IMG/VR virus record: IMGVR_UViG_3300034378_000127
Span: 1-52,442 of that record
From: a virus
Taxonomy: Duplodnaviria; Caudoviricetes
DNA length: 52,442 bases
Reading direction: 5' to 3' (one strand)
Shown here piece by piece: positions 1 to 51,645 of this stretch. The notes below the pieces were generated by a model. That model worked only from the letters and a program-made list of their open reading frames with translations, had not been told where the DNA came from and searched no databases. A program made the position numbers and the translations under genes. Position 1 is the stretch's first letter; each line of letters opens with the position of its first letter.

Positions 1-42
1 ATCGTAACCACCCCAACTGTTTACCCATCCTAAATCTTTCAT
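1..42 (-). CDS. 5' fragment of cassette ORF (MKDLGWVNSWGGYD...), truncated by window edge
   Basis: ATG at 42 preceded by GGAGGT SD, just inside cassette 5' end. Confidence 0.6.
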   Translation of the reverse strand, partial: MKDLGWVNSWGGYD

Positions 43-94
43 AATACCTCCTGCGGTAGTGCACCGAACTATAAATTGAAAGTGCAATTTATTT

Positions 95-263
95 TGCACA
101 ACGGCATGGCAAATGCACGAAGTATTGCGCCTATAATAAAAAAAGTGCAACGCATAGTTTGTTGGCTGCTGCGTTGCACTACTGGACACACTAAAAACGG
201 TCAGTGCTTCTTAATGATACAATATAATTCATGCGCAACATTTTGTGCTTTGCCTGTTAGCTG
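95..263 (-). repeat. attC-like site (long, ~169 bp)
   Basis: tgcacaac-ggcat-ggcaaatgcacgaagtattgcgc ... gcgcaacattttgtgctttgcc-t-gttagctg; nested hairpin in the loop; TAA stop of the upstream ORF lies in the core. Confidence 0.8.
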
Positions 264-418
264 TTGTGCTGCGATTCCGTTTTATCCTGCGGTTTTGCGG
301 ATTCCACAGACACAGACAGTATAAGTCCACCAATTTTAATTAGACAAGGGTTCGGCAATTCGATGTCTTTCGAATCGGCGTATACTTCACGAGTAACCTT
401 CAAAATGTCTTCTGGCAT
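257..418 (-). CDS. Cassette-encoded hypothetical protein, 53 aa (MPEDILKVTREVYADS...QHNS)
   Basis: Read by hand (below the ORF-track cutoff); AAAGGTGG SD; stop TAA inside the GCTAAC core. Confidence 0.65.
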   Translation of the reverse strand: MPEDILKVTREVYADSKDIELPNPCLIKIGGLILSVSVESAKPQDKTESQHNS

Positions 419-481
419 AATAGCCACCTTTCATTAAATGGTTTACAGATAGCAAAACCGCCTACAACATAAGCTGCATTG

Positions 482-637
482 CAGCTAACGTTCACCGTAC
501 TGTGCGAAGTTGCCGTTGTACAACATCGAAAAAGTCTATACAAATATCCATTGGTGTTTCAGCCACCTTGTATTCTTCACAATAATCGCTCCATAAATCT
601 TCAAATAACGGCAATTTTGCACTGCGGGTGTTATGCG
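482..637 (-). repeat. attC-like site (long, ~156 bp)
   Basis: cagctaac-gttc-accgtactgtgcgaagttgccgtt ... aacggcaattttgcactgcgggt-gttatgcg. Confidence 0.8.
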
Positions 638-809
638 CTGTTGAGCAAGTACCATTTTTAGGTTTGCAATACTTTCGGTGAATAGAACCGTCTTTACCAT
701 CATAAATTACGGTGCAAAGAGTACCGCACTTGGTACACCATCTTTTCGTATAACCATAACGGTTAGTATTTTCCTCACAGATTGTTCTAAACACATGCTT
801 ACATCTCAT
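492..809 (-). CDS. Cassette-encoded Cys-rich hypothetical protein (likely start MRCKH), reads through the attC
   Basis: CKH...CTKC motif; ATG at 809 lies just inside the cassette 5' repeat; the track start at 863 lies inside the upstream attC. Confidence 0.55.
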   Translation of the reverse strand: MRCKHVFRTICEENTNRYGYTKRWCTKCGTLCTVIYDGKDGSIHRKYCKPKNGTCSTAHNTRSAKLPLFEDLWSDYCEEYKVAETPMDICIDFFDVVQRQLRTVR

Positions 810-840
810 AGTTGCAAACCTACAATTAAATTTAAGAGCG

Positions 841-900
841 AAATGGTGAAGCGCTGAAAGCATTTGGCAAAGCCCGTCAGCACCATTTATTTGTTGCCTG
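841..900 (-). repeat. Degenerate attC-like site (one core lost)
   Basis: aaatggtg...caccattt stem and gttgcctg core present; expected cgcataac core absent. Confidence 0.6.
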
Positions 901-1324
901 CTGTTTGGCTCCGCTCCGCATTATTCTGCGGCGCATTACCACGAAGAATGAAAAGACAGCACGGCGACGGGCTACGCCAAGGCTCACCCGTATCCTTCTC
1001 TAAAAAACGCACACGCCCTGCGGACCTGATTTCGGCCCCTGCCGCCGCCAAATGCATCACATACGACTGACAGGGCAGTAATAAAACAGAGCCGTTCCCC
1101 CGCTTGTGTTCGGCGATAGCTTTATGCGCAAAAGCCGTTGGTCCTTTGCCGCCAACCCCGTCGTGACGACGGAACGGCGGATTCACATAATTCATGCTGC
1201 CCCACGGTACATCGAGACTGTTATACCCTTCCGGCTTGGGGTACGGGCAGGGGTCGAAATCAAAACAAAACTCCCGGTCCAGCGACTCATATAGTGCGGG
1301 AGGGGTGATCCAGTAACTTGACAT
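887..1324 (-). CDS. Phage-type DNA N6-adenine methyltransferase (Dam-like), cassette-borne
   Basis: WITPP..Y..LD.EF.FDFDPCP N-terminus and YVNPPF catalytic motif. Confidence 0.85.
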   Translation of the reverse strand: MSSYWITPPALYESLDREFCFDFDPCPYPKPEGYNSLDVPWGSMNYVNPPFRRHDGVGGKGPTAFAHKAIAEHKRGNGSVLLLPCQSYVMHLAAAGAEIRSAGRVRFLEKDTGEPWRSPSPCCLFILRGNAPQNNAERSQTAGNK

Positions 1325-1373
1325 GATTAACCTTTCTTTATGCGCCGCCTACAAAATGGTCGGAGCCAAATTG

Positions 1374-1431
1374 CAGGCAACGTGATGCCAAACGGCGGTA
1401 GTTTTAATTACTCGCCTTTGGCTGTTGCACG
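1374..1431 (-). repeat. attC-like site (58 bp)
   Basis: caggcaac-gtgat-gccaaacggcggta...tactcgcctttggc-t-gttgcacg with an extrahelical base. Confidence 0.85.
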
Positions 1432-1437
1432 ATGTAT

Positions 1438-1665
1438 TCACGATTCCGAAACCCAGGCTTGCAAATCCTCATCGTAAACAGCAGCACAGTCTTGACACCG
1501 CAAAAGCCCCTTGTGCTCGAAACGCCTTATGTGCGGACACTCATTTTCCATGTACGGATCAAGGTTGCGTTCTTCTTCCAAGTACCGAAACTCTCCGACG
1601 TGAGAGCACTGGAAACCAACAAAGTCTTTTCTGCGCACTAATTTGCAAGCCATACAATTCCCCAA
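1438..1665 (-). CDS. Cassette-encoded Cys-rich hypothetical protein
   Basis: Fills the cassette; CPH and CQDC motifs; start may be ATG 1653. Confidence 0.6.
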   Translation of the reverse strand: MGNCMACKLVRRKDFVGFQCSHVGEFRYLEEERNLDPYMENECPHIRRFEHKGLLRCQDCAAVYDEDLQAWVSES

Positions 1666-1677
1666 GAGTGAATATTT

Positions 1678-1874
1678 TGTGCAACGTCAGAATTACCCGA
1701 AGTGCCGTTACGACTGCATATAATAGCCATGAATTGGGCAATCTTTATTAATAATTAATGATAAAGACGCACTAATAATTTTGCCACTTGCATCCGTATT
1801 TTTATAATGAAGACCATTTTCTTTACAAAGGCATTTGGGCGAACCCTGTGAGCCGGGTAATTCGTTGTTGGTGG
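1678..1874 (-). repeat. attC-like site (very long, ~197 bp)
   Basis: tgtgcaac-gtca-gaattacccg ... cgggtaattc-gtt-gttggtgg. Confidence 0.7.
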
Positions 1875-2031
1875 ATGTAACATTGCCTTCCATCGATTTT
1901 TCGGCTGGTTTGCCACAATAGATACAGCGCCGCACTCCAGTACAAGGCATGCGCCCTGAGCAAGCGTATGAATGCTCCTTACACTCCACCGTTTCAACTT
2001 TGCCACACCAAGCAATAGTTTTTGTCCACAT
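1708..2031 (-). CDS. Cassette-encoded Cys-rich hypothetical protein, reads through the attC
   Basis: GGAGG SD; CKEH...CIYC; the C-terminal half is encoded inside the attC. Confidence 0.6.
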   Translation of the reverse strand: MWTKTIAWCGKVETVECKEHSYACSGRMPCTGVRRCIYCGKPAEKSMEGNVTSTNNELPGSQGSPKCLCKENGLHYKNTDASGKIISASLSLIINKDCPIHGYYMQS

Positions 2032-2073
2032 GATATCCTCCAGCCGACTATAAATTAAAAGGCAATGTTATTT

Positions 2074-2134
2074 ACACCAACGTTTGACAAATGGCAGATG
2101 TGCTGAAAGCATTTTTGCCTTTGTTTGTTGTTTG
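2074..2134 (-). repeat. attC-like site (61 bp)
   Basis: acaccaac-gttt-gacaaatggcagatgtgc-tgaaa-gcatttttgcctttgtt-t-gttgtttg. Confidence 0.85.
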
Positions 2135-2198
2135 TCTGTTTGTAAATCACCTACAATATTTTAAATCCTGTTTGCGCCGAGTTTTTAAGTTTTTGTTT

Positions 2199-3413
2199 TT
2201 AGTAAAAAAGATTAGGTTCTTTAACTTCACCGGAGTAGCCTTTGTTTAAAATATCATCGACCGTAATAAGTTCAATAAAAATTCCCTCTTTTTTTACTCT
2301 TGCAACCTCTTCTTTTGCACCTTTACCAAAACTAAAACCAACAATATAACCTTTCATCTTTTTAGTTTTAGTATTTCTATAATATCTTCTTATTGCTGTT
2401 TCAAAATTATCAACAACATTTCTACCTATTTTTTTTGATTGTTTAACCTGAATAGGACAATGCTCTAAAAAACTAAGACCATCTATACCCATGTCACCAG
2501 ATTTTTTTGGACTTGGCACACCATGCATTTCGTTGATAACCCAATATTGAAATTCATAAGGTTTGAAATCTTTTAAATCTTCTGCTTTCTGTGGCATACC
2601 AATAACATTATAATTTTTGTAAAACCCCGGAATATTAGCAAGTCTCTTTTTAATTAATGCCACAGCAGAGGGGGAAATATCAATACCTATCCATTTGCGG
2701 CCTAATTTTTCAGAAACAGCCAAAGCAGTACCGCATCCACAAAATGCATCAAGCACAATATCATTTTCATTTGAAGATGCTTTTATTACTCTTTCCAAAA
2801 GAGCTTCAGGCTTTTGGGTTGGATAACCTAATTTTTCTTTGGTTGAAGATTGAAGCGCAGCTATTTCCCAAACATCCCTAACAATAGCGTCTCTATATTG
2901 TCTTCCGTCTTTATCAATTTTAAAATCATCTTTTTTAAAACCATATTTATGTTGCATATATGAGCGTTCTGTCATGTAATTAAAAGTCCACTTGCCTGTT
3001 TTTGTATAAAATAAAAGTGTGTCGTGTTTTCTCGACCATCGCTTTTTTGTTGCGCCTTGTGTTCTGTAAGCCCAAGCAATTTCGTTTTGAAAATTTTTAT
3101 ACCCCAAAATTTCATCACACATTACTTTTAAGTAATGGGAAGCATGCCAATCACAATGAAGATAAAAGGAGCCAGTGGATTTTAATACTCTATGTAACTC
3201 TATAACCCTATCACGCATCCAATCAATATAAACATTAATACCACCTTCCCAACGGTCTTCAAAACTTCTTATTTCAGCCTCATCGCTCCAAATAATTTCA
3301 TAATTCCTGTTACTAAAAAAAGGTGGGTCGATATAAACAAGGTCAATGCTTTCTGTTTCAAATGTAGACAATATCTCTAAATTATCACCACAATAAAGTT
3401 TGTTTTTATCCAT
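2199..3413 (-). CDS. N4/N6 DNA methyltransferase (beta class) fused to a C-terminal Mrr-like PD-(D/E)xK domain; cassette-borne
   Basis: YIDPPF, YPTQKPEALL, LDAFCGCGT motifs; C-terminal GDMGIDG...IQVKQS; visibly AT-rich. Confidence 0.85.
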   Translation of the reverse strand: MDKNKLYCGDNLEILSTFETESIDLVYIDPPFFSNRNYEIIWSDEAEIRSFEDRWEGGINVYIDWMRDRVIELHRVLKSTGSFYLHCDWHASHYLKVMCDEILGYKNFQNEIAWAYRTQGATKKRWSRKHDTLLFYTKTGKWTFNYMTERSYMQHKYGFKKDDFKIDKDGRQYRDAIVRDVWEIAALQSSTKEKLGYPTQKPEALLERVIKASSNENDIVLDAFCGCGTALAVSEKLGRKWIGIDISPSAVALIKKRLANIPGFYKNYNVIGMPQKAEDLKDFKPYEFQYWVINEMHGVPSPKKSGDMGIDGLSFLEHCPIQVKQSKKIGRNVVDNFETAIRRYYRNTKTKKMKGYIVGFSFGKGAKEEVARVKKEGIFIELITVDDILNKGYSGEVKEPNLFY

Positions 3414-3540
3414 TATAAATCCATTTTTATAAAATTGTAGTATTAAGTTTATATTTTTAAATTAATTTCTTTTGTTTTTCGGCGCAAACCTATAATCCAG
3501 TGGTTTACAAATTGCAAACAACTAGAGGTTATATGAACCT

Positions 3541-3753
3541 CTATTTTTTATAAATCTTTCTTATCTTCTTACTTATCAATGGTTTAACTATTTTCATTGG
3601 TTCCTCAAGACTCAAATAAAATTCTCTTATTTTTCTTCTCCGGATTTCTTTACGCCATCTGGAAATAAGCTCATCAAATGTTTTCAAACCGTAAAATTTT
3701 CGCCAATGATTCAACACGGCATGATTCTCAACGCTCAACGCAATAGTCTTCAT
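3541..3753 (-). CDS. Small basic protein, probable ribbon-helix-helix DNA-binding protein
   Basis: MKTIALS.E....L......G.KTFDELI pattern. Confidence 0.5.
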   Translation of the reverse strand: MKTIALSVENHAVLNHWRKFYGLKTFDELISRWRKEIRRRKIREFYLSLEEPMKIVKPLISKKIRKIYKK

Positions 3754-4238
3754 AACACGCCTGCTTTCCAGAATCCCATACCAACGGCGTCAGCTTCATG
3801 CTGTCTATATCTTCTACCATTAATCCGCTCGACGCGTAGAACCATCTTTCTTTCATTGAGTTGACCGAGCCATTTTGGATCAACGAGAGTAACTTTTTTA
3901 TTATACCGTTCACACATATTCCAATAACCACCTATCAGATAAGCTAATGTATCAAGTGAACCGGATAATGAAACTCTTGTACCAAAAACTGTTGGCAAAT
4001 GTCTAACACTTTCAATCCAAACTTCATCTATTTTTTTATTAAGCGTTCTTATTAGAGCCCCAAACTGTAACCACATACTGCACATTCTCTCCCCTTGTGT
4101 AGAAACTCTTCTCTTATTTCTCTCTGGATGGATAAGTCCTGTCATTGGATGTTTATCACCATGAAAAACTGCCCATCCTGTGTTACCGATGCCAGGATCA
4201 ACGAACATTGCTTTATCAGGATATTTAATTATTTGCAC
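3750..4238 (-). CDS. RuvC-like Holliday junction resolvase
   Basis: VDPGIGNTGWAV, WIES, HEADAVGMG. Confidence 0.8.
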   Translation of the reverse strand: MQIIKYPDKAMFVDPGIGNTGWAVFHGDKHPMTGLIHPERNKRRVSTQGERMCSMWLQFGALIRTLNKKIDEVWIESVRHLPTVFGTRVSLSGSLDTLAYLIGGYWNMCERYNKKVTLVDPKWLGQLNERKMVLRVERINGRRYRQHEADAVGMGFWKAGVL

Positions 4239-5637
4239 GATTATGCATTCCGTTTATGATTGCTTTTAATTGCATATTACGTTTTTCTTTTCGCCGAAGC
4301 GATTTAACAATATCTTCATCAACAGAATTCTCGATAACCAAATCAATTATTAATAATGAATCTGTCTTACTGACATCAACAAACCTATCCTCCGTCTGCT
4401 GGCGGGTCTCCAGACCGCAGGGACTCGAATAATAAATCATAGTTGCTGCGCACGAGAGATCGACACCATGCCGAAAACATTCAGGCTGGCAGATGATTGT
4501 TCTGAGGGCACCATCGAAGAACTGTTTTCGCATCTCGTTTCTTTCTTGTGGTTTCACTTGCCCACAGATGACTGCTGAAGAAATCTTGTTTCTCGTAAGT
4601 TCACTATGGATAGCGAGTATCTCATCGATGAAGACCGCCCAGATAATTACCTGCTCATTGCGAAGCTCGCCGGTCAGCAGGTCAATCAACGCTCTCATCT
4701 TCGCGAGTTGAATTAGCTTCCCCTCTACCAATCCACCGCAGATTCTTCTCAGCCAGATGAATGCAGTAGTCGCGTATAAGGTCTTATCCACTTCCTGACC
4801 GTCAATCTCGAGCACGAATGACCGCTCGACTTCGTCGTAGGTCTTTCGCGCTTTACTCGAAAGTTCTACCTTCGCGAGTCGGTGAATCTTTTCACCGCCG
4901 AGATTGACGTCCTTTCGCGCCAGGAAGTGACAATGCTTATGTAACGCTCGGGCGAGGCGCTTTCGTCCTTCAGAATGTATGAACCATCGAGAACCATCGG
5001 AAGCAGGCGTGAAGTTGTTATGGCGCCACGCATAATATATTGACTCGCTAAGTATATCAGGTGAAAGAAATTTCAATTGACAAAAATATTCGAGTTCGCT
5101 TTCTGGCGCAGGCGTTCCACTGAGGATAGCTTTATACGGAACCTGTTTGAAGTTCTTTAAATAAAATTCGGTAACTTTGGCATCAGGTGATTTTATAAAT
5201 GTACTTTCATCAATTATAATAGCATCCCAATCAACGTACTTGATATCTTCAATGACTTGCCAACCTTCTTTATTTAATAAGTTAAATTGAGCTTTTGACC
5301 AAAGCGCATTTAACCGCTTAGATTTCTCTCCTATTAAGTATGCGATGTTTTGTATGCCTTCCTCCTTTAGTGCTATTTCCCAGCCTTCTAAGGCGCTGTA
5401 CGAGGAGACTATAAGCACTCTCTTTATTTCAGAAATAGATAATAACCAACGTATGATGATTAAAGTTTTACCAAGTCGCATATCTACGAAAAGAGCGACC
5501 AGTTTACGTTTCAAACAATACTCAAGTATCTCAATTTGATATGGTCGCATTTTCTTCAAAGAAAGCGGACGCGAGGCGTCCACTGGAGAAGCCTTACTAC
5601 CTCGCGTCCTAAGGGCGGCAGGAGGCGTCATACTCAC
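4225..5637 (-). CDS. SNF2-family helicase (start may be ATG 5550, MRPYQ)
   Basis: RPYQ, DMRLGKT, IIDEST, LSGTP, HGVDL, QTEDR motifs. Confidence 0.9.
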   Translation of the reverse strand: MSMTPPAALRTRGSKASPVDASRPLSLKKMRPYQIEILEYCLKRKLVALFVDMRLGKTLIIIRWLLSISEIKRVLIVSSYSALEGWEIALKEEGIQNIAYLIGEKSKRLNALWSKAQFNLLNKEGWQVIEDIKYVDWDAIIIDESTFIKSPDAKVTEFYLKNFKQVPYKAILSGTPAPESELEYFCQLKFLSPDILSESIYYAWRHNNFTPASDGSRWFIHSEGRKRLARALHKHCHFLARKDVNLGGEKIHRLAKVELSSKARKTYDEVERSFVLEIDGQEVDKTLYATTAFIWLRRICGGLVEGKLIQLAKMRALIDLLTGELRNEQVIIWAVFIDEILAIHSELTRNKISSAVICGQVKPQERNEMRKQFFDGALRTIICQPECFRHGVDLSCAATMIYYSSPCGLETRQQTEDRFVDVSKTDSLLIIDLVIENSVDEDIVKSLRRKEKRNMQLKAIINGMHNRANN

Positions 5638-6188
5638 TTACCGCCGGTGAGTTTTTTGAGTTTTTCTTTTGTTACCATTTTTCCATTATATCGAAACAAC
5701 TGAAAAATCTTGTCTTTCTTCGCAAGTTGAACATTAATATTAGATCGAACAAGTGACATTTTATATTTTTCAGTTGGAAACAAGTCCTTACCAAACTTCG
5801 CTTGAACTTTCGCAATGATTTCTTCATCTGTATATTTACGCTCAAGCGAAAGAGCACGAACAAGGGACTTGATAGTTATGGGTCGACCAGTTTTTTCTTC
5901 AGTCGATTCCTTTGTTATCTTCTTAACTGGTTTATTCTTCTTTTCAGTTTTTTCATTCATTGTCTCCTTGGCCTTTGCATCCTTCTTGGCTGCTGTTCGT
6001 TTTTTCGCCACTTCTTCCTCCTCAGTTAAATGAAATAACGTCGGTATTCCCCTAAAATATCCAACTGCTTTAAGCTGTTGCTTTAATGCATCTTGTGATT
6101 TTGCTATACCTTCGCATCCTTTATATTCCCACAAAACGCGAGGTTGATTATCTGACCAACGTACAGCCTCGACAACCAAATCTCTCAT
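5634..6188 (-). CDS. Lys-rich hypothetical protein
   Basis: ORF; start moved to ATG 6188 after the GGAGGCGTCA SD. Confidence 0.65.
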   Translation of the reverse strand: MRDLVVEAVRWSDNQPRVLWEYKGCEGIAKSQDALKQQLKAVGYFRGIPTLFHLTEEEEVAKKRTAAKKDAKAKETMNEKTEKKNKPVKKITKESTEEKTGRPITIKSLVRALSLERKYTDEEIIAKVQAKFGKDLFPTEKYKMSLVRSNINVQLAKKDKIFQLFRYNGKMVTKEKLKKLTGGK

Positions 6189-6215
6189 AATTTGACGCCT
6201 CCTTTTCATTTAAAA

Positions 6216-6416
6216 TTAAAATATGCTGTCAATCCAATGCTTATTCAGCATGTGATTTTGAGCGGCTATAGATGCATTTATTTCCGATTGTGATAAAAAC
6301 TCGAAATCCTGTGAAGATGAGAAGTCTTCAACAAAACCTTCGAAACCGCAATTCTTGCAGACGACTGTTTTATTGTCAAGTGATTTTAGATTATACGATG
6401 AACATTCTGGGCACAT
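6216..6416 (-). CDS. Zinc-ribbon protein
   Basis: CPEC...CKNCG; GGAGA SD. Confidence 0.7.
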   Translation of the reverse strand: MCPECSSYNLKSLDNKTVVCKNCGFEGFVEDFSSSQDFEFLSQSEINASIAAQNHMLNKHWIDSIF

Positions 6417-6442
6417 TATTCCGACGTCTCCTTATATTAATT

Positions 6443-6628
6443 TTATTTTTTCTTTGTTAATTTATTGGTATCAATATAGATAAAACCATATTGATTCTGC
6501 ATCGTTAATCTTATTTTTGCAATGCCTTTATCGTCTATTGATTTGACAATACCACAATATGTACAATACCGACCAAACTTAAACTGCCTTCTCCAATATA
6601 CAGAGTCATTTATTTTAATTTCATTCAT
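6443..6628 (-). CDS. Small hypothetical protein
   Basis: ORF coupled to the upstream gene (TAATG). Confidence 0.6.
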   Translation of the reverse strand: MNEIKINDSVYWRRQFKFGRYCTYCGIVKSIDDKGIAKIRLTMQNQYGFIYIDTNKLTKKK

Positions 6629-6807
6629 TATGACGCTTCCACATTAATAATTTTAAAATCAGCCATCTCAAGATTTGTCAATAAATGATTCGCGAATCTT
6701 GCATTCTCATCATCAGTCAAATGCTTGTTAAATGCTTCATAAGATGAGTCTCGAATTATTTCTAATAATAAATCTAATTCTGCTTTTGTGAATTCCATTC
6801 TTTTCAT
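6628..6807 (-). CDS. Small hypothetical protein, 59 aa (MKRMEFTKAELDLLLEII...)
   Basis: Read by hand; GGAGG SD; ATGA overlap with the upstream gene. Confidence 0.65.
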   Translation of the reverse strand: MKRMEFTKAELDLLLEIIRDSSYEAFNKHLTDDENARFANHLLTNLEMADFKIINVEAS

Positions 6808-6959
6808 TCTGACGCCTCCTCTGTGTAAGGTTTTATTTTATCACGAACTTCTTGCAAATCTTTATGGTCATCACAGGCTACCCATCCTTCCTCAGTCATA
6901 ACATGAAACGAACCATCTGCATGCTTTACAACATAACCAATTTTGTGTTGGGATTTCAT
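6804..6959 (-). CDS. Small hypothetical protein, 51 aa (MKSQHKIGYVVKHADG...)
   Basis: Read by hand; AAGGAGG SD; first gene after the promoter. Confidence 0.65.
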   Translation of the reverse strand: MKSQHKIGYVVKHADGSFHVMTEEGWVACDDHKDLQEVRDKIKPYTEEASE

Positions 6960-7010
6960 CTTGACGCCTCCTTATTGAATTGTGGATTTCTCTCTTGCTC
7001 TCTATTATAT

Positions 7011-7039
7011 ATTATATATGATTTATAGCAAAAAATCAA
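7011..7039 (-). promoter_or_regulatory. sigma70-type early promoter
   Basis: TTGATT-17 bp-TATAAT on the minus strand with AT-rich upstream sequence. Confidence 0.75.
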
Positions 7040-7113
7040 GTATTTTCTTAGCTAATTTTCTAACTCTTTAAAAATCAATAAGTTATAATTTCATATTTTC
7101 ACTAATTTCAGCA

Positions 7114-7260
7114 TTTTAATACAAAATTAATACACTTTTAATACAACAAACTATCACTATATATTTATATTATAATTTACAAATAATAATATATAAATAT
7201 AAAAAAGGCAAATGTATATATACATTTGCCATATTAAAATTGTATTAAAACTGTATTAAA
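7114..7260. repeat. Inverted arrays of 11-bp-period AT-rich repeats (iteron-like), copy 1
   Basis: 3x TTAATAC at 11-bp spacing (7114-7146) facing 3x TATTAA at 7232/7243/7254. Confidence 0.7.
7201..7230 (-). terminator. Intrinsic terminator at the end of the tail operon
   Basis: GGCAAATGTA-TATA-TACATTTGCC followed by a T run on the minus strand. Confidence 0.7.
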
Positions 7261-7455
7261 TTATTTCTTTTTTTCCTTCTCCTTATCAACTTCGATTAAA
7301 GATTCTTTTTCTTTTTCAAGAATCTCAACCTTTTTCTTCAGTTCTTGATTTTCTCTAAGCAGCCTTGCACATTCATCTACGAGTCCACGTACATTGTTCT
7401 GCAAAGCAAGAATCTCACGCCCAATTTGTGAATCGATTGCTTCCAGTGACGGCAT
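7261..7455 (-). CDS. Small coiled-coil protein after the tail fibre
   Basis: Heptad pattern, GGAGG SD. Confidence 0.65.
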   Translation of the reverse strand: MPSLEAIDSQIGREILALQNNVRGLVDECARLLRENQELKKKVEILEKEKESLIEVDKEKEKKK

Positions 7456-7485
7456 TTGAACCTCCTTGGCTTTAATTGTGAATTG

Positions 7486-9174
7486 TTATACCCATTGCGC
7501 TAAAGCTGCAACGGATGCTCCAGTTGTTTGTGCTGTTAAGATACCACCAGTAAAAGTCAGCGTTATTCTCCAATTCGCTCCATCATCAAGTGTCAAAGTT
7601 CCTGTTAATCCATCACTACCATTAGCATTAAATATTGTATTTGCACGTACTTTCCCGTCAAAACGATATTCAGAAAGACCATCAAATGAAGCAGTATCAT
7701 TTGCATCCTTTCCCACGCCTATTTGCATCTGTTCAATGCCACCCGCGCCGGCGTTATAACCACTTATTTTCAATTCAGGAGTGTTTCCAGAAGCTACGTT
7801 ATTGAAAAGATGTACACTCTGTGCAGTTTGGACGCTATCTTGTAAATAAAGAACACTTATTGAAGATCCAGCTGTTGTGATATAATCATGTCCTCCGGAT
7901 TCATATAATTCTATACCGACTCCGGCTGCGGTGCCAAAAAATCCTTTACCTTCAGCATATAATGCATAATCGATATTAGATCCTGACTCGATATAAATAC
8001 CATAAGCAGAACCACTAGGATCAAAACCCGCATCTGCTTTAACATATAACCCATATAAGCTGCCACCTAAAGAATTTAATGAACCCAATGCCGATCTTGA
8101 ATAAATATACGTGCCAAGCACATCACTGCTTATATTACCAGCCTGTGCATAGCTCTCAATATATGATCCATATAAATTTGTAATAGTACCATTTATTGTA
8201 TTAACATAATTATAATCAGCTATTAAACTACCAATAGTACTACCACTATCATTCATCCGTGCAATATTATGAATACCATAGACATGATCACTTGCATCTG
8301 TAGTGCCAGCTATTTTAATATGAGAATTATATATACCATGATACGTAACAGTTGTATCCACAGCGTTATCTTGAATAAAGAGATGTTTATCTGTTGTAGG
8401 GGTAACTCCAATGCCAACATGACCAGTGAACTCAATATTATCTGATCTATCAATTATAACTGAATCGTCTGTGCCAACTCCAGTTCGACTAATCTTAAGT
8501 TTATCAGCATCGTCATCATCAAGACCTATAAACCAAGTACTTGCTCCAGAATTGCCTATTTCAAGATAAGAATCTGTAGTTCCATCTGGACTTAACACTC
8601 TTATAACAGAATCGCCAGTTCCACCACTAGTGATATGCAGAGTTGTATCTGTAGCGTCTGCTCTATTCACATGCAATGTTGCTGCTGGAGTGTTTGTTCT
8701 TATCCCTATATTGCCAGAACTTCCTTCAATGAAGAGTGCATTTGATACTGCATTAGCATTTGCGATAAAATCAATATCAACTTCTCCAGCGTTAAATTCT
8801 GCATAATCTGTTCCACCTTCAACGAAATCCCAGAACTCTACACTGCCGATCACAGTTGTTTTCCGGTCAGCACGCCATCTGTCATAGCTATCTGTGTCAC
8901 CCTGGTGGTAAAGATATTCTGATACATACAAATCATCATTTATAGTGACATCACCAAAATCATTATCGAGAAACGTAAATGCTGAGCCATCTGTGCTGTA
9001 TTTTTGTAGTGCCCCCACATATGTTTTAGTGTTATCATCATTCTTCCAGACGAATTCATCATATGGAAGTGCTGCCGTAACGTTGTTGACAATAGCTATT
9101 TGTCCATGGTCTGCATTTGCATAAATATTCGCCCAGGTGTCTTCGATATGTGTGATATGAACTTGTTGAGCCAT
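7486..9174 (-). CDS. Tail fibre / receptor-binding protein
   Basis: GNIGIRTNTP..TLHV and GHVGIGVTP fibre repeats, beta-rich YG repeats, position at the end of the tail module. Confidence 0.75.
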   Translation of the reverse strand: MAQQVHITHIEDTWANIYANADHGQIAIVNNVTAALPYDEFVWKNDDNTKTYVGALQKYSTDGSAFTFLDNDFGDVTINDDLYVSEYLYHQGDTDSYDRWRADRKTTVIGSVEFWDFVEGGTDYAEFNAGEVDIDFIANANAVSNALFIEGSSGNIGIRTNTPAATLHVNRADATDTTLHITSGGTGDSVIRVLSPDGTTDSYLEIGNSGASTWFIGLDDDDADKLKISRTGVGTDDSVIIDRSDNIEFTGHVGIGVTPTTDKHLFIQDNAVDTTVTYHGIYNSHIKIAGTTDASDHVYGIHNIARMNDSGSTIGSLIADYNYVNTINGTITNLYGSYIESYAQAGNISSDVLGTYIYSRSALGSLNSLGGSLYGLYVKADAGFDPSGSAYGIYIESGSNIDYALYAEGKGFFGTAAGVGIELYESGGHDYITTAGSSISVLYLQDSVQTAQSVHLFNNVASGNTPELKISGYNAGAGGIEQMQIGVGKDANDTASFDGLSEYRFDGKVRANTIFNANGSDGLTGTLTLDDGANWRITLTFTGGILTAQTTGASVAALAQWV

Positions 9175-9575
9175 TATGCGTTCTCCTCAATGAATTTCCG
9201 AATTTTATTGATGTAGATTTCTAATTTCTTCTCTCCTAAGTCTCGCTGCGCTTTTGCTTCGAAAGATGCTAAAAGCTTCTCTGTCAGCTTTTTCTTATAT
9301 ATAGCGGAGTTAATCGCTTCAAGAGATTTCTCTTTTTCTTCTTGAGAGACAAATGATTTTTCAACTGATTTTTTAGCAGCTTTAATTTCATCATCGACAC
9401 GTTTTTTTAAACTGCTTTTATTAACGCCTTTCTTGGATTCCGCTGCAGTTTCATCAAGCAAAGTAAAATGTTTCCAATCTTTGACAGTCTCATTACCATC
9501 TAAGTCTCTGAGAATAGACTTTGGATGTTTCTCAAAAGTAATAGTAATAGATTGTAGTTTCATTTTTTCCTCCAA
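9174..9575 (-). CDS. Hypothetical protein (tail region)
   Basis: Coupled ORF with SD. Confidence 0.6.
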   Translation of the reverse strand: MEEKMKLQSITITFEKHPKSILRDLDGNETVKDWKHFTLLDETAAESKKGVNKSSLKKRVDDEIKAAKKSVEKSFVSQEEKEKSLEAINSAIYKKKLTEKLLASFEAKAQRDLGEKKLEIYINKIRKFIEENA

Positions 9576-9577
9576 GT

Positions 9578-12500
9578 TTACATTTGATCTAATTTATCTC
9601 TGTTATCACCATATTCGGTTGTCGTATCCTGCCAATCTCTATCATCCCCAAATAAATTCATGACATCCTGAATATCAAATTCCTCCGGGATTGTCTCACG
9701 TTTCATTATTGCATCGATAGTAATCAGATAAGGCGGATTTGGATTAAATTCTGCTTTAAATAAAATACATTCTATCGTTACTCCATCAGTCTGGTGAGGC
9801 AAAGTAATCGAGAACTCATGTCCTTCCTCCCAAGTATGAGCTGTCGTGTAGTGTACTTTGAATTGAATTCTTGGATTAAACATCCAGCTGATTCTTGTTG
9901 CAATATTATATTCTGCAATCGCATCAGCATCTTCACCGTTTGCCCAAAGTAATTCAGATAAATCTTTCGGAAACTTTCCTATTTCATGTACTCGTTTGTA
10001 TAGCTCATTACACTGGTTCCAATATTCCTCGGCCAGAAATGGGCTCGAAATCCCTTCAACATAATTACTATTATAAGTTGAAGCACCTGAATTGATGAAT
10101 CTGATAATCTCTTGATTCTTTTTTGCTCCTATGCTGTATTGATAATCGACAAACGGTTCTGGAAATACCTCTGATGGATTTGGTTCTGTAATTTTTATTG
10201 ATGTCCTATCAATAATGTCTGCAAGTGTCAAAGCGTCTGATGGATTAGTAGTTTCTTTAATAAGTCGCTTCACAGATTCAAATCCGTTTTTATCAATCCA
10301 ATTGATGAGAAACAAATCCCGACAAACTGAACGTTTCAACGAATCAGAATAGGCTTCACCTCGGTCAGTTATCACACGGGCAATTGAATATAGATCAGCC
10401 CACGTTTTCAAATCTTCATCTTCAAAAGATCCTTCTGCCCAAATATAACCGCTAGTATACGAATATGTGAGATTTGCATCCATTGTAATAATAGCAAGAC
10501 TGATGGAACTTATCGTTGCTTCTTCCCGGTTGACGCCATCAGTGATTATTACCCGTTGGTCTATCCTGAACGTCGCAGCTTCCGCGATCGTTGTCGTTGT
10601 TATTGTGTTCACGCCACTGGTAGCAATTGTGCCTTTCGAAACATTTATCAGCGCATTTTCCGCGTAATTCTTTCCCCAGTCTACTGAGGGAGGATCAGGA
10701 ATGCCGCTTGAAGGAGGATCGGAGACATCACTGTAATTCTGGAGACGACTGACATGCTCCATCAGATCAAGCGGTGAGCTCATCATATCTGTCGAAGTTT
10801 TCCTTCCGAGCCACGTATCGTTGAATACTCTACCAGCCATTGGACTATATAATTCTCGTCCGAGGGGTATACTGCGCTCGAAGACGAACGCAATCTCGCA
10901 AATATCTAAAAATGTCGTCGACTGAGCAGGAGCATCTCTGTCGGTATTCCACATAATAATTGTGTGATTAATAGCTCTATATAAATCTTCATTCGTAACA
11001 GAAGGCATCTCTAGTTTTTCATGACCATATTCTGCTTTCCTAAAACAATCGTATGCTAGATTGAAGTAAAAGGGCTTGTCGTATCGTGGAGGATTATCCA
11101 AAAAATAAAAATCAGGGAGGAAAGACACATCAGCAGAAGTTGGGTAGCAGGTAAGACTCAGGTCAGCTGCCAGTGGAATATTAGCTATCTGAGTATAAGC
11201 TCCAATGAATCTTCGTTGATATACATTAACAAATCCACTATTGCTATCATAATTAGACATAAAGAGAAGATATGTCTTTTTTATCTTATATCCCGTTGGA
11301 AACTCTGGAGGAAATATTTTCAATACAACGATTCCCTCATCATCGACTCCATGAAAAAGAATATTTCTAAGATAAGTATTAGAATATTTGTCCATTATAT
11401 TAGCAATCGATCCAGAGGTTGACCAAGTAGTACCGCCAAGCCTCCAGAATCCTGGTGAAACATAAACAAAACCCAAACCAATAAAATGTGGATCAATTGT
11501 TCCTAATTCGGTTGAATCCCCATAATATTCAATACTTGCAGGAGGTTTGATTATATAACCAGTAAGATAGCTAGGATTACCTTCAAATAATTTAGCTACA
11601 ATCACTACTCGGTTTTTGTCTCCATCGCCACTATCATCATAAGCATACTGTGGAAGTCTCTCATATGTGATTGGAATTTCATCTATATCCGCATCGGTGT
11701 TCTCAGTTGTAACTTTTGCTATCTTTTTCGATTGATAACTTGTCATGTAGAATGCTCTTGATATCGCTGTGCCATCAATATCGAGATAGTCTTTACACGG
11801 CCAGACATCGCACTCGTATTCATTCGTAATTGTATAAAAACTAATCCATGTTTGTTCACTATCACTTCCATTCCAATTTCCTCTTAAATGGCTACTGAAT
11901 ATCGTATCGATTGTCAATTCGATTCGAGAAGTACCCTTTGTAGAATCCAAATTAACAGTAGCGGCAGTGATTTTCCTATATTTTCCTACTGTCTTGTTTC
12001 CCGATTGATTGTTCTCAACTACTTTGATATACTTCCCGACGAAATAATCCAACGAATGCTGTCCTGTTAATCCAGGAATGCCATTCTGTTTCCAAGTAGG
12101 CAGACCATCTTCTCCGTAAATTCTTACTAGATATTTTTCTGGCGAGTCAGATAGTTGAAACACTCTAGCGTATCGTGCTGGATCATATGTCGCACCCAGA
12201 TTTGTTTTCATCGTCAATTGATTAACAGAAATGCTCTGTATTTCACCTCCCTCAATACTACTAGTGTCTTTCAAATAAACCAAATCTCCTATTGAGAATT
12301 TTGAACCATCTTCGACGTGTACTATCTTCTGTCCTCCAGTAGCTGCGATAGTTAAATCAGATGAGATACTATCGCCAACAATAGGAAAGACCGACTGTTG
12401 GAGCATGTAATCATCGGCAACTTCAAATTCGATATTTGTCGCTGAATCAAAAACTCTATTTTGTAAATGTCTGTAAACTTCTTCGATATGTCCGATGCGA

Positions 12501-13291
12501 AGAAATTTCGTATATGAATTATAATCAATGTTTCCTTCTGTATCAAATTTCGGAAGATGCTTTCCAAACGTTAGGGGAACAACTTGTCCTCTTGCTTCTT
12601 CATCAGCATCGGGATAATTAATTGCGGTGATTATTGTTGATAAATTAGAACGACGTTTATTTTGCATCCCTCTGAATCGAATCTCATATCGAGTTGCATC
12701 CCATGTTGGCTGTTCACAGATACCGTGCCACTTTGGTAATTTGGTACTATCCTCAAATTCGAATATGATAGCATGACAACCATTCAGATAAATGCTTTCA
12801 TCGCTCAATTTCTGTTGAAATTGATTTGTGTTTTTAACAGTAACGCCTCCCGTGCCTCCAGTTGCGATCTCGCCTCCCACCAGAATATCAATATTTCGGC
12901 TCCAAACCATAATGCCATTTTCAACTATCATGTTGGCATTCCAATTTGATACGCCACTGACAGTGTTTTGTATCCAACGAAATCGGCTATTACCATCTGC
13001 CTTTCCGTTAAGTGTACCTTGATATGTGTTAGATAGATTATTCATCAAATACAAAATATTCCCGAGGATACGGACAATGTAATTGATCTCCTCATTATTG
13101 TCATCTCTAATTCTTATAATGTCTCGTTGAGAAAAAGAGCTTCCATCCACAACAGTGATATAATTATTACCTGAGGGTTGCGTACCATTAAGGGCAGACG
13201 TAACGTTGTAAAGACCTACCGATGTGTCTTGCGAGGCAAGAGAGAGGTGATCTTCGAGTGAAATTTCAACGCCAAAGACCCTTGTAGCCAT
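9578..13291 (-). CDS. Large tail-tip / baseplate hub protein
   Basis: 1237 aa, two genes after the tape measure; three 'V.DGS.F...D.I.I.D...E' modules. Confidence 0.7.
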   Translation of the reverse strand: MATRVFGVEISLEDHLSLASQDTSVGLYNVTSALNGTQPSGNNYITVVDGSSFSQRDIIRIRDDNNEEINYIVRILGNILYLMNNLSNTYQGTLNGKADGNSRFRWIQNTVSGVSNWNANMIVENGIMVWSRNIDILVGGEIATGGTGGVTVKNTNQFQQKLSDESIYLNGCHAIIFEFEDSTKLPKWHGICEQPTWDATRYEIRFRGMQNKRRSNLSTIITAINYPDADEEARGQVVPLTFGKHLPKFDTEGNIDYNSYTKFLRIGHIEEVYRHLQNRVFDSATNIEFEVADDYMLQQSVFPIVGDSISSDLTIAATGGQKIVHVEDGSKFSIGDLVYLKDTSSIEGGEIQSISVNQLTMKTNLGATYDPARYARVFQLSDSPEKYLVRIYGEDGLPTWKQNGIPGLTGQHSLDYFVGKYIKVVENNQSGNKTVGKYRKITAATVNLDSTKGTSRIELTIDTIFSSHLRGNWNGSDSEQTWISFYTITNEYECDVWPCKDYLDIDGTAISRAFYMTSYQSKKIAKVTTENTDADIDEIPITYERLPQYAYDDSGDGDKNRVVIVAKLFEGNPSYLTGYIIKPPASIEYYGDSTELGTIDPHFIGLGFVYVSPGFWRLGGTTWSTSGSIANIMDKYSNTYLRNILFHGVDDEGIVVLKIFPPEFPTGYKIKKTYLLFMSNYDSNSGFVNVYQRRFIGAYTQIANIPLAADLSLTCYPTSADVSFLPDFYFLDNPPRYDKPFYFNLAYDCFRKAEYGHEKLEMPSVTNEDLYRAINHTIIMWNTDRDAPAQSTTFLDICEIAFVFERSIPLGRELYSPMAGRVFNDTWLGRKTSTDMMSSPLDLMEHVSRLQNYSDVSDPPSSGIPDPPSVDWGKNYAENALINVSKGTIATSGVNTITTTTIAEAATFRIDQRVIITDGVNREEATISSISLAIITMDANLTYSYTSGYIWAEGSFEDEDLKTWADLYSIARVITDRGEAYSDSLKRSVCRDLFLINWIDKNGFESVKRLIKETTNPSDALTLADIIDRTSIKITEPNPSEVFPEPFVDYQYSIGAKKNQEIIRFINSGASTYNSNYVEGISSPFLAEEYWNQCNELYKRVHEIGKFPKDLSELLWANGEDADAIAEYNIATRISWMFNPRIQFKVHYTTAHTWEEGHEFSITLPHQTDGVTIECILFKAEFNPNPPYLITIDAIMKRETIPEEFDIQDVMNLFGDDRDWQDTTTEYGDNRDKLDQM

Positions 13292-42851: not shown

Positions 42852-43154
42852 TCACCTCCTATTATTTAAGAGTAAAAATTCCATTCGTGCAGCTTCTTTT
42901 TCATAAATCCCCTTTTTATTAATTGGTTTTCTGTATTGTAACCAATTTTTCATTGATAAGACTGTTGTTTCTAATCTATCAAGTAACAGTAAAAGGTCTT
43001 TGTACATGCGGTCGTCTCTCTCTTCTTGTTCAGCTTTGAGTTTAAGGTCACGAATTGCTTGATTCCAATTTTCATCTTCTTCATTATTATACTTCATAGT
43101 ATATTTTGGATTAAAATCTTCCAAAATTTCAATTATTTCTTGTAGAGTTTTCAT
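42852..43154 (-). CDS. Hypothetical protein
   Basis: Coupled ORF. Confidence 0.6.
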   Translation of the reverse strand: MKTLQEIIEILEDFNPKYTMKYNNEEDENWNQAIRDLKLKAEQEERDDRMYKDLLLLLDRLETTVLSMKNWLQYRKPINKKGIYEKEAARMEFLLLNNRR

Positions 43155-45253
43155 ATCATCTCCCCTGTTTCTATCAACTCAATTACTTCTTCATTTATTT
43201 TATATGCTTTTTTACGTCCTGCCAAAACTCCTTCTTTATTTATTGTGTCAAGAACACCGAGCATCGATAAATTTTCAAGTACACGTTCCCCTGTCGGCCA
43301 AGCAGCAATTCTGACTTCCTCACTTATCTCTCTTGAAGACCATTCACGTGCACCATGTTCTCCCTGTAGATACATACTATCGAGAAAATTAAGTGACAAT
43401 GAAGGAATCGTTCCTCGGGCAATTTGCTTTATTGCATTATAATCTTCTTGAGTAGCTTTCGAATGTCCACGAAACTGGGCTATTCCAACAATTTCTTTTG
43501 TCAATTGTTTCACAAGACGAGTACCAAGTTCTGTATAAGGTTTCTGAGTCACCTCTCTTGTGTAGCGATCCCGAGAAACAGTGCCTCGCATCATTGAAGT
43601 TAATTGTGCTATCGAGTCAAGTTTATTTTCAATAGTTGCTGGAATAGTTGACATCTTTTTATAGGCATGAGAAAGCACTTTGACTGACATCTCATTAAGT
43701 TCTTTTTTCATCTGTTCCTCTCGTCCGACATTTGATCGAGCTTTTTGTAAATATTCACGTCTTTCTTTTAAAGAAGAAGGCAATGGAATTATATATCCAA
43801 GAAATCTTTCACCCAGTGATGAACATGCTTCAATATATTGCTCGACAGCAGGAGTCACAGCAGCGATTATACCAAATGTTGATTTAAACGATTTTATTCC
43901 TCGACCAAACGCCTTCTCTGACCGTCCATCATATGCTGAACGAAGTATACCAAATATTTCGTCTCTCTTCTGTGGAGGAAGTTGTAAGATAGTAGTGAAA
44001 TCTTGAATCACTAACACTTTACCATCTAGCTGTGGAATAAGAGAAGGGTCAGCACCTGTTTCTGAACGGACTCCTGATATAAGGGCATATTGATTAAGAG
44101 TTGTTGTTGTGACAATCTTCGGTGCTCCTCTGAGAGACATTAAAGGTTCTGTTTTAGTCGCCCCAGGCGGAGCTATTATAAACATCCATAAGGGATCTCC
44201 TGGTATTCGATTTGCGATCACAGTGCTAAATAAAACATCAATCATTGTCACATCTGGAAGATGAAGCCATTTTCTGAATTTTCGATAAACCTCTTTGTGA
44301 TTAACCCGTTCACCTTTTAACTGATTACCAGCTTTAAGTTCTACATTCGTTCTTGAAGTTTCATCATAGCCAGGAGGATGTTCTTTAAAGAATGATTTCA
44401 ATTTTTTATAAGTGAGCTCTGCATTATAATTTGACATCTGATATAAATCTCTAACATCGCCTCCAACTGAAGTTCCCTCAGGCCAGTTAATACATTTTAT
44501 GTCATAAACAATTCCTTTCAATGTCTCAAAAGTTTTCTGGCAACCCGCTTCTCCCGCCTTATCATTATCATAAGCAAGATAGACTGTTTTATCTGTAAAG
44601 AGACTATTCCAATCTGTTTTAAACGTACCAGCACCAGGAACGCCGACAACATATTCAGTCTGTTTTTCCATATTGAATAATATTTCATCAATCGTCAAAG
44701 TATCCCATTCTCCTTCACAGATCCAAATCGTATCATATATCTGCATATTCTCCCATCGATAGAGTCCGACTGAGCATCCAGCAGTAGAAAGGATATTTCT
44801 ACCAATATGGTAATGTCGTAAGTCATGCAGATTCCTAGGATTCCCAGGTTCAGGAATTGGTATTGTATAAGCATCAGTATTGATATTATATCCAATTCCA
44901 GCACGGCGAAGAGTTTGCAGATTGAGACCTCGATTCACGGATAACTTATTTCCTGTTTCATCATTAAATTCTTTTACAGAAAATAAATGTATCCCTCGAA
45001 GAAATGTAGCAAATCCACCACCTTTGGCGCAGACTTTAGTCGCACCGCGTTTACATTGCCATTGCTTTGTTTTTTCATTAACACTAAAATGTTTCTCTTT
45101 ACCACAGAAGGGACAATTACCTATTCGTTCATTTCCTGAACGTTTTGAAAAGACAACTCCGTGCTGAATAAACGCTCTGAGAGGATCAGGTCGTTTTTTA
45201 CTCGGCTCCGAAATAGGGAGTGCCCTTTTCGGCACTTTTCTTTTTACCGGCAC
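43151..45253 (-). CDS. Primase-helicase (Zn finger + TOPRIM + AAA+/MCM-like ATPase)
   Basis: CPFCG..H...C, ICEGEWD, YDND.AG, APPGATKT, LRSAYDG, LGERF; start GTG 45253 after GGAGG. Confidence 0.85.
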   Translation of the reverse strand: MPVKRKVPKRALPISEPSKKRPDPLRAFIQHGVVFSKRSGNERIGNCPFCGKEKHFSVNEKTKQWQCKRGATKVCAKGGGFATFLRGIHLFSVKEFNDETGNKLSVNRGLNLQTLRRAGIGYNINTDAYTIPIPEPGNPRNLHDLRHYHIGRNILSTAGCSVGLYRWENMQIYDTIWICEGEWDTLTIDEILFNMEKQTEYVVGVPGAGTFKTDWNSLFTDKTVYLAYDNDKAGEAGCQKTFETLKGIVYDIKCINWPEGTSVGGDVRDLYQMSNYNAELTYKKLKSFFKEHPPGYDETSRTNVELKAGNQLKGERVNHKEVYRKFRKWLHLPDVTMIDVLFSTVIANRIPGDPLWMFIIAPPGATKTEPLMSLRGAPKIVTTTTLNQYALISGVRSETGADPSLIPQLDGKVLVIQDFTTILQLPPQKRDEIFGILRSAYDGRSEKAFGRGIKSFKSTFGIIAAVTPAVEQYIEACSSLGERFLGYIIPLPSSLKERREYLQKARSNVGREEQMKKELNEMSVKVLSHAYKKMSTIPATIENKLDSIAQLTSMMRGTVSRDRYTREVTQKPYTELGTRLVKQLTKEIVGIAQFRGHSKATQEDYNAIKQIARGTIPSLSLNFLDSMYLQGEHGAREWSSREISEEVRIAAWPTGERVLENLSMLGVLDTINKEGVLAGRKKAYKINEEVIELIETGEMI

Positions 45254-51503: not shown

Positions 51504-51541
51504 AAGGGCGAAAACCTATAAATTAAAAATTCTGAAAATGG

Positions 51542-51625: not shown

Positions 51626-51645
51626 TTGTAAAGTTGCCCACAATA

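Follow-up and report, generated by a model that had tools for sequence, protein, structure and literature searches.

Can a phage take up and exchange accessory genes one at a time, at fixed crossover points, in the manner of an integron? The question is raised by a viral contig (Duplodnaviria; Caudoviricetes), IMG/VR record IMGVR_UViG_3300034378_000127, whose whole 52,442 nt are called the window here, and which is classed as linear with a completeness estimate of 88% (CheckV). A sequence-only reading of positions 1-3543 had described a cassette array with attC-like hairpins and no integrase, embedded in the early/replication operon. We found an array of at least 5.5 kb, with about 11 units, inserted into the replication module with the RuvC-like gene on one side and the UDG gene on the other. 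From the features of these units we think it probable that this is an integrase-less, integron-like array of the CALIN type, whose AAC and GTT cores acted as crossover points and for which an IntI-like enzyme is the leading candidate recombinase. A CALIN consists of at least two attC sites lying close together with no integron integrase nearby. The components of this reading are not equally firm: site-specific exchange at the cores seems to us quite likely, and the naming of IntI specifically as the recombinase is tentative.

All long open reading frames (ORFs) of the window are on its minus strand, and with respect to transcription 1-3543 is its final 3.5 kb. Each unit, read along the coding strand, consists of a GTT(G/A)-arm, a 5' leader, an ORF and a complementary arm ending in AAC, and consecutive units are joined by imperfect hairpins built as AAC, 1-3 nt, a stem-loop-stem of 9-11 bp, 4-6 nt and GTT (Table 1). 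The six attC-like sites previously said to separate co-oriented ORFs in 1-3543 all proved to have cores. Five carry GTT(G/A) on the minus strand (...AAC on the plus strand) at 100-103, 486-489, 1378-1381, 1682-1685 and 2078-2081, and the sixth, near 841, is degenerate as had been noted, its GTT-side core (R') being lost and reading CTTAAAT at 830-836. Four of the sites are complete elements, from AAC through spacer, stem, loop, stem and spacer to GTT (Ee, Eg and the two long elements of Table 1), and the site near 482 consists only of the AAC-side core (R''), 25 nt and R', plus a small 6-bp hairpin. The array opens with a bare R' core, directly preceded by a boundary hairpin, and closes with a full element. 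Stop codons in or near the AAC core, another feature of the sequence-only reading, were also recovered: two ORFs have their stop within the core (TAA at 257-259, and 51962-51964), the stop of the Dam-like ORF is 4 nt past it, and four ORFs read into the hairpin downstream of them.

We scanned the window for AAC and GTT(G/A) enclosing a stem-loop whose stem has 8 bp or more and at most one bulge, with up to 3 nt between AAC and the stem and 3-6 nt between the stem and GTT(G/A). The minus strand yielded 10 such elements and the plus strand 2, compared with a mean of 3.5 and a maximum of 6 in 30 block shuffles; the AAC and GTT triplets are not independent evidence here, because the scan anchors on them. 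Eight of the 10 minus-strand elements fall in two terminal arrays, 1-3543 and 50740-52442, where they measure 48-187 nt with stems of 9-11 bp and, with three degenerate ones, make up the junctions. Elsewhere, an element-like AAC...GTT hairpin of 133 nt (42126-41994, minus strand) occupies an AT-rich gap between genes, well away from the arrays, and is probably there by chance.

A further feature is the relation between the two ends of each unit. The 3' core of each cassette had been described as complementary to the cassette's own 5' core, and this holds for five of the six complete units in 1-3543, the unit of the 492-812 ORF being the exception. Over the whole window, own-end pairing is found in eight of nine complete units, either as 8-9 contiguous bp or as 15-18 matches in 20. 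The longer arms have a common build, a perfect box of 7-9 bp beginning GTT(G/A), a mismatch of 2-4 nt and a second box of 7-10 bp; in three units (3522/2127, 489/256 and 52281/51961) the first box stands alone with 8 bp. Genome-wide there are 21,292 pairs of GTT and AAC spaced 100-1600 nt apart, and 11 of them match at 15/20 or better, a count that averaged 3.5 and never exceeded 10 in 100 shuffles. The arrays account for seven of the 11, among them the four best, at 16-18/20, which bracket the Dam-like unit and the unit of the 244-aa methyltransferase (both 18/20), unit 2 (17/20) and the 67-aa ORF unit (16/20).

Might these patterns reflect no more than chance and ordinary intergenic terminators in a variable region, with no recombination sites at all? 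GTT/AAC runs of 8 contiguous bp are indeed common genome-wide (39 pairs versus 29 in shuffles), and several of the hairpins are thermodynamically unremarkable. Since such runs are not rare, short pairs can count only at positions predefined by the hairpins, and we placed the weight on those and on the long arms. The clustering of the elements, their strand bias, the arms at 16-18/20, and the second array and exact homology ends described below all speak against chance, and we consider this explanation extremely improbable.

The claim that own-end complementarity is the junction signature of integrons was examined with a positive control, Vibrio phage Va_90-11-286_p16 (MK672802), which appears in a list in PMC9892861 as bearing a complete integron and in which we located 14 attC sites. 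In this phage the cassette's own ends pair over 8-11 contiguous bp in 12 of the 13 consecutive site pairs, the thirteenth spanning a site missed by the pattern, whereas the two cores within one site pair over only 4-5 bp at all 14 sites. Pairing between own ends likewise exceeds pairing within a site in the window. The claim is upheld by this control, and because the window shows the same own-end pattern, its junction signature is that of recombination at the cores. The R' 7-mers of the window (such as GTTATGC, GTTGTGT and GTTGCCT) are also within the variety seen in the Vibrio array.

A search with the Dam-like protein led to an IMG/VR contig of 16.5 kb and 60% G+C (UViG 3300028840_003775, hereafter the second contig). 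The Dam unit is 83% identical over 467 nt between the two, with the identity running from CGTTGCCTGC to CAGGCAACA, that is, from one core to the other, and with unrelated flanks on both sides. Nothing else is common to the two contigs, all nine tblastx high-scoring pairs falling in 914-1385. The outer arm boxes differ between the two Dam copies, yet they pair within each copy. One unit has therefore passed between unrelated phages, the breakpoints lying at its GTTG and CAAC cores. The earlier proposal that the phage gains and shuffles genes through a host integron integrase is supported insofar as the Dam unit moved between phages at the cores; its other half, the host IntI, has to contend with sites of non-canonical form and with searches that identified no recombinase.

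The second contig has an array of its own, with at least six units bracketed at 15-18/20 and the same hairpin design; an MT-A70 methylase is among its cargo, along with a weak match to radical SAM that, at 27.4 bits, falls short of the 29.5 cut-off. Two metagenome contigs equal it at 99.98-100% over the compared stretches, with no polymorphism among the three copies. On its reverse strand, 9152-9714 and 12054-12616 are paralogous units of one array (73.5% DNA identity), and they look like derivatives of a single ancestral unit whose 3' arm survives in one and whose 5' arm survives in the other. An apparent nested bracket at 9728/12019 arises from two paralogous units and not from nesting.

Other searches for moved units gave little. 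GenBank phage DNA yielded only three weak methylase matches; the 404-aa methyltransferase has 23 homologous loci, and the 10 viral contigs examined among them were all without arms. Bracketing arms were likewise absent around Dam homologs at 68% identity or less (12 loci). The homolog search with the 244-aa methyltransferase found only one relative, at 25%, and that with the 107-aa ORF found none.

Where the array sits was established from related phages, a comparison suggested along with the sequence-only reading. A search with the single SNF2 protein returned nothing, and an SNF2 profile then collected 80 loci from IMG/VR. The gene order in these relatives is SNF2, RuvC, UDG and then homologs of the window ORFs 49144-50106, 48072-48977, 45449-47209 and 43151-45277. 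UDG comes after RuvC in 29 of the 33 relatives with a RuvC match (E <= 1e-5), with a gap of 0-1578 nt that is at most 100 nt in 15 of the 29. In the window the same two genes lie at opposite contig ends, with at least 5.5 kb between them. Because they are neighbours in the relatives, the two terminal clusters must be halves of one array, opened by the contig ends, and the earlier placement of the array in the replication module was correct. The two contig-end ORFs, one starting at 42 and one open at 52305-52442, share a reading frame if the ends are joined (14 + 45 codons), but their flanking cores are not complementary (GTTGTGCA at 102 versus ...GCCCAAC at 52349), so the two ends are probably not contiguous, with a piece of the array lacking between them.

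A homolog of the small ORFs or of the Dam-like gene was found in none of the 80 relatives; the large methylase is weakly matched in three. The hairpin scan of these loci (1.19 Mb) gave 12 matches on the plus strand and 17 on the minus strand, with no locus having two or more on the coding strand, and the RuvC-UDG gaps of the relatives contain neither arrays nor bracketing arms. Among the relatives sampled, the insertion is thus private to the lineage of the window.

Several results weigh against an integron-type array, and they fall into three groups. The first is the lack of an enzyme: profiles for integrases, recombinases and transposases (TIGR02249, PF00589, PF00239 and PF01797) all had zero matches on the whole contig, in agreement with the earlier statement that no integrase is present, while the control searches were positive in 10 to 14 of 14 reference genomes. 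The second is the modest stability of the hairpins. Folded as DNA, six stretches gave single-hairpin z values from -2.5 to +0.44, and two of the six fold no better than shuffles. An Rfam scan of 1-8000 returned four matches, all below gathering scores and none related to integrons, in a database for which the presence of an attC model was not confirmed. The third is the geometry of the sites, which was measured on the ORF-sense strand for 8 sites in the window, 6 in the second contig, 3 in Tetrasphaera phage TJE1 and 5 in the Vibrio phage. The canonical controls (TJE1, 3/3; Vibrio, 5/5) all have 3/3-nt spacers and a bulged base on the 5' arm. In the 14 sites of the two contigs, by contrast, the spacers are 1-3 nt after AAC versus 4-6 nt before GTT, and 10 of the sites have the bulge on the 3' arm, one, a poorly defined site, has it on the 5' arm, and three have none. 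Moreover, the arms of the window extend over 15-23 nt with an internal mismatch of 2-4 nt, which the Vibrio and TJE1 arrays lack, and the hairpins flanking the shared Dam unit are not homologous between the two contigs on either side (p 0.33 and 0.68). A canonical cassette carries its attC along. The four ORFs that run into their downstream hairpin, and an array that opens with a bare R' and closes with a full element, do point the canonical way.

The sites of the window are attC-like in cores, size and logic: there are more than two of them, clustered and with no integron integrase nearby, and their AAC and GTT cores bound imperfect palindromes of 48-187 nt, those of attC being roughly 50-150 nt. 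They do not have the near-symmetric R-L spacers, with an extrahelical base on the R''/L'' half, of canonical attC; they are asymmetric, with opposite polarity relative to the ORFs, and are not canonical attC. A single A usually follows AAC in the 14 sites, and the spacer before GTT often ends in AC.

This regularity raises the alternative of a separate phage-borne cassette system that resembles integrons, with a recombinase other than IntI that would come from the host, from a helper element or from the missing 12% of the genome, and with an exchanged unit that runs from GTTG to CAAC without a hairpin. The same non-canonical geometry in 14 sites of two unrelated contigs, differing from 8/8 canonical sites, favours such a system, as do the movement of the Dam unit without either hairpin and the covariation of its outer arm boxes. 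A stem type G(G/C)CAAAG...C[N]TTTG(G/C)C also recurs in both contigs but is joined to different units: Eg, upstream of Dam in the window, resembles the hairpin that follows Dam in the second contig (p 0.0035, the stem type being a common one), and Ec resembles that same hairpin with p < 0.0005. In this case the phages would have a system parallel to integrons, with a hairpin of mirror polarity and a recombinase that is not a classical IntI, trading anti-restriction methyltransferases and counter-defence genes, a possibility we regard as rather unlikely. No candidate enzyme emerged from the profile searches of the window. The second contig encodes one tyrosine recombinase (395 aa), beside a tRNA-like stretch and with no match to the integron-integrase model (E <= 1); given this neighbour and the missing match, it looks like an ordinary lysogeny integrase. 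The array matches integrons exactly in its AAC/GTT cores, its own-end signature and its methylase cargo, and IntI1 accepted five of six phage sites of varied form in the assays described in PMC9892861. For these reasons we give the separate system a minor share of the probability, and an integron-like array remains our preferred reading.

Under this preferred reading, the AAC and GTT cores would be the crossover points of a tyrosine-type site-specific recombinase acting on folded, presumably single-stranded, DNA. As the contig contains no recombinase, we infer that the enzyme is supplied in trans, with an IntI-like enzyme of the host as the leading candidate. A unit would leave as a circle, its two arms pairing to complete a site, and would then re-enter at another core. 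By this route the phage could collect and swap accessory genes, and the methyltransferases among them plausibly shield its DNA from host restriction. Two kinds of transposon were considered and ruled out. A miniature inverted-repeat transposable element, or another transposon with terminal inverted repeats, does not fit arms that vary between units except for GTT(G/A)/AAC, and an IS200/IS605-type transposon does not fit the lack of PF01797 matches or the position of the hairpins, which is between units and not inside them.

A different possibility is that the elements serve regulation, as the PeSL modules of T4-type phages do, and that the units were shuffled by homologous or microhomology-mediated recombination with no site-specific enzyme. 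The unit leaders do share a motif, T(T/A)(G/A)TAGG (often TTGTAGGCGGCGCAT), with 14 copies on the minus strand, of which 6 are in intergenic regions of 1-3543; leader copies are at minus-strand positions 136, 467, 825, 1354, 2156, 3495 and 51521. In the leaders counted it begins 24-30 nt from the core, 29-30 nt past the GTTG core in four leaders and 24 nt past it in the leader after GTTAGCTG (489). The second contig has it on the reverse strand near 10106 and 12747, about 31 nt past the core in the one leader counted, and the two Dam units share 28 identical nt at the motif. In addition, a terminator-like stem-loop with a T run lies inside the long element 258 to 100, and PeSL-mediated shuffling and mini-circles are documented (Arbiol et al. 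2010; PMC2839356). The leader motif, which may be a promoter, a ribosome site or a protein site, is not a sigma-70 consensus, however, and the elements themselves have no sigma-70 match, the minus-strand matches in 1-3543 being confined to 3461-3434, 3252-3225, 1787-1758 and 347-318. Apart from that one stem-loop the hairpins lack T runs. The nine aligned copies are alike in structure and little in sequence, with a mean column identity of 45% and only AAC, GTT and a few bases invariant, and so there is no long repeat to support homologous exchange. Recombination between direct repeats also does not yield arms complementary to a unit's own other end. We therefore find this explanation improbable, and return to the integron-like array as the preferred one.

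RNAalifold found no consensus structure on a MAFFT alignment of the nine copies, because the stems are out of register in the alignment. An 18-nt loop motif had 37 matches in IMG/VR, all in unrelated coding sequence, and a pattern of the hairpin stem had no match in IMG/VR and one in genomes, inside a repeat-protein gene.

How does the array compare with known systems? Integrase-less attC clusters had been described in the sequence-only reading as known mainly from bacterial replicons, a view that is now dated. In the sections of Qi et al. (2023; PMC9892861) on the screen of 10,705 phage genomes, three complete integrons, one integrase without cassettes and 17 CALINs are given; five methyltransferases are counted among the phage cassettes, the published phage examples have 2-4 predicted attC sites, and IntI1 recombined five of six tested attC sites from virulent phages. 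One of these phages is TJE1, listed there as a CALIN with three attC sites, of which attC1 and attC2 were recombined by IntI1. In our scan of TJE1, orf2 sits between two of three attC-like hairpins, and the 244-aa methyltransferase of the window has 41-54% amino-acid identity to this orf2. In Polaribacter phage P12002L the minus-strand replication genes have the methylases at their distal end, and GTTAGGCA...TGCCTAAC bracket gp35. Further minus-strand arm pairs of P12002L, at 40764/40552, 40154/40047, 39518/39242, 39125/38933, 31120/30952 and 30011/29237, consist of a GTT box of 9 bp and a second box, with a 2-nt mismatch between them; they suggest more units than would follow from the two attC sites that the paper tested, but this phage is very AT-rich and the output consists mostly of 14/20 matches, so the arm scan is not specific there and the extra units are unproven.

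The window resembles these phage CALINs in its integrase-less array of co-oriented single ORFs, its AAC...GTT hairpins, its virulent-type genome and its N6/N4 methyltransferase cargo. It differs in having about 11 units against the 2-4 sites of the published examples, and in site form, TJE1 sites being canonical whereas the window has unequal spacers, the bulge on the 3' arm and longer arms with an outer box. Published phage sites were assayed for recombination in PMC9892861, and those of the window are known from their sequence. With integrons in general it has in common the AAC/GTT triplets, the imperfect palindrome, stops in or near the first core, strong own-end complementarity and heterogeneous G+C (404-aa methylase 30-34%, Dam-like gene 53-56%, backbone roughly 36-42%). 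Unlike integrons, it has no intI, no recognisable attI or Pc, an asymmetry that is opposite relative to the ORFs, one shared unit without a co-inherited hairpin, and a position inside a phage operon. The PeSL cassettes, as presented in PMC2839356, are similar in their small accessory ORFs in a hyperplastic region, their stem-loop separators and the proposed modular shuffling and circles, but they are conserved sigma-70 promoter-terminator sequences that recombine by homology, whereas the window elements conserve shape and carry the AAC/GTT signature; a repeated, sequence-conserved sigma-70 promoter with a terminator stem-loop was not found in them. A literature search for 'attC-like' sites with phage genome and methyltransferase returned no paper under that wording. 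Phage CALINs with methylase cargo were already published in 2023, and what sets the array apart is its size, its conserved non-canonical geometry and the observed exchange of a unit.

The genes of the window run on the minus strand in the order SNF2, RuvC-like, 70-aa ORF, 404-aa methyltransferase, 107-aa, 75-aa, Dam-like 145-aa, 106-aa and 56-aa ORFs, followed by the gene that begins at 42 and is cut by the contig end. DNA methyltransferases are encoded by three of about 11 units, and the others encode small proteins, three of them Cys-rich (492-812, 1438-1665 and 1708-2031). Strong Shine-Dalgarno sequences precede several ORFs, and the units may be co-transcribed with the operon. The promoter proposed earlier for the array, at 7039-7011, is a 10/12 consensus match and one among several in an AT-rich stretch. 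This stretch, 6900-7350, has 19-23% G+C and several sigma-70-like minus-strand matches, that one included, with a terminator-like hairpin of 10 bp at 7230-7207. It is likely the boundary between the late and the early/replication transcription units.

Table 1. Units, junction elements and neighbouring genes of the array, with positions in the window; ORF coordinates are in brackets, and arms and elements read along the minus strand.
Feature	Position	Strand	Details
Unit 1: N6/N4 DNA methyltransferase, 404 aa (MT404)	2127-3522 (ORF 2199-3413)	-	PF01555, 180 bits; outer bracket GTTGTTTG...CAAACAAC, 8 contiguous bp (3522/2127); inner nested arm pair of 11 bp, GTTTGCGCCGA (3489)...TCGGCGCAAAC (2170)
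Unit 2: start and N-terminal half of 107-aa Cys-rich ORF	1867-2081 (ORF 1708-2031)	-	arms 2081 to 2059 / 1889 to 1867, 17/20; 23 nt at 87%
Unit 3: 75-aa Cys-rich ORF	1424-1685 (ORF 1438-1665)	-	arms 1685 to 1668 / 1441 to 1424, 15/20
Unit 4: Dam-like N6-adenine methyltransferase, 145 aa	893-1381 (ORF 887-1324)	-	arms 1381 to 1361 / 913 to 893, 18/20
Unit 5: 106-aa Cys-rich ORF	487-829 (ORF 492-812)	-	no clean bracketing arms; end is R'' GTACAAC (521 to 515), 25 nt, GTTAGCTG core (489)
Unit 6: 56-aa ORF	256-489 (ORF 257-427)	-	bracket GTTAGCTG...CAGCTAAC, 8 contiguous bp
Unit 7, start	1-102	-	core GTTGTGCA, motif AATTTATAGT, Shine-Dalgarno, ATG at 42; runs off contig end
86-aa ORF unit	52281 to 51961	-	arms 8 bp
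67-aa ORF unit	51913 to 51618	-	arms 16/20 (51913/51618)
N6/N4 methyltransferase unit, 244 aa (MT244)	51549 to 50789 (ORF 50769-51503)	-	arms 18/20 (51549/50789)
Hairpin at proximal boundary of array	3515-3543	-	8-bp stem, overlaps stop of 70-aa ORF; z -3.82, 0/200 shuffles as stable; directly before first core GTTGTTTG (3522 to 3515)
Ee	2079-2129	-	51 nt; AAC-AA-ACAAAGGCA-loop 19-TGCC[A]TTTGT-CAAAC-GTT
Long attC-like element	1683-1869	-	187 nt; AAC-AAC-GAATTACCCG-loop 154-CGGGTAATTC-TGAC-GTT; loop encodes C-terminal half of 107-aa ORF
Eg	1379-1426	-	48 nt; AAC-A-GCCAAAGGCG-loop 15-CGCC[G]TTTGGC-ATCAC-GTT; fold z -2.19
Eh, degenerate	830-895	-	R'' GGCAAC, 8-bp stem AAATGGTG/CACCATTT, R' decayed to CTTAAAT; z +0.44
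Long attC-like element	100-258	-	159 nt; AAC-A-GGCAAAGCAC-loop 126-GTGC[A]TTTGCC-ATGCC-GTT; z -2.50; loop contains 11-bp terminator-like stem-loop, then T run
Ea	52351 to 52279	-	after partial ORF at contig end
Eb	51963 to 51911	-	
Ec	51620 to 51547	-	
Ed	50791 to 50740	-	followed by core UDG gene
SNF2 helicase	4225-5637	-	
RuvC-like resolvase	3750-4238	-	backbone gene flanking array
70-aa ORF	between RuvC-like gene and array	-	stop overlapped by boundary hairpin
UDG-superfamily protein	50103-50681	-	backbone gene on the other side of array

The entry and exit of single genes in phage accessory regions is rarely visible, and at this locus the junctions can be read base by base. About a quarter of the cargo consists of DNA methylases, which fits a quick change of protection against host restriction. 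The site geometry is specific enough for searching other genomes and for bench testing. If a host integrase is responsible, phages would tap the bacterial cassette pool directly, as proposed in the text of Qi et al. (PMC9892861). If a different enzyme is responsible, the array would represent a second recombination system based on folded DNA.

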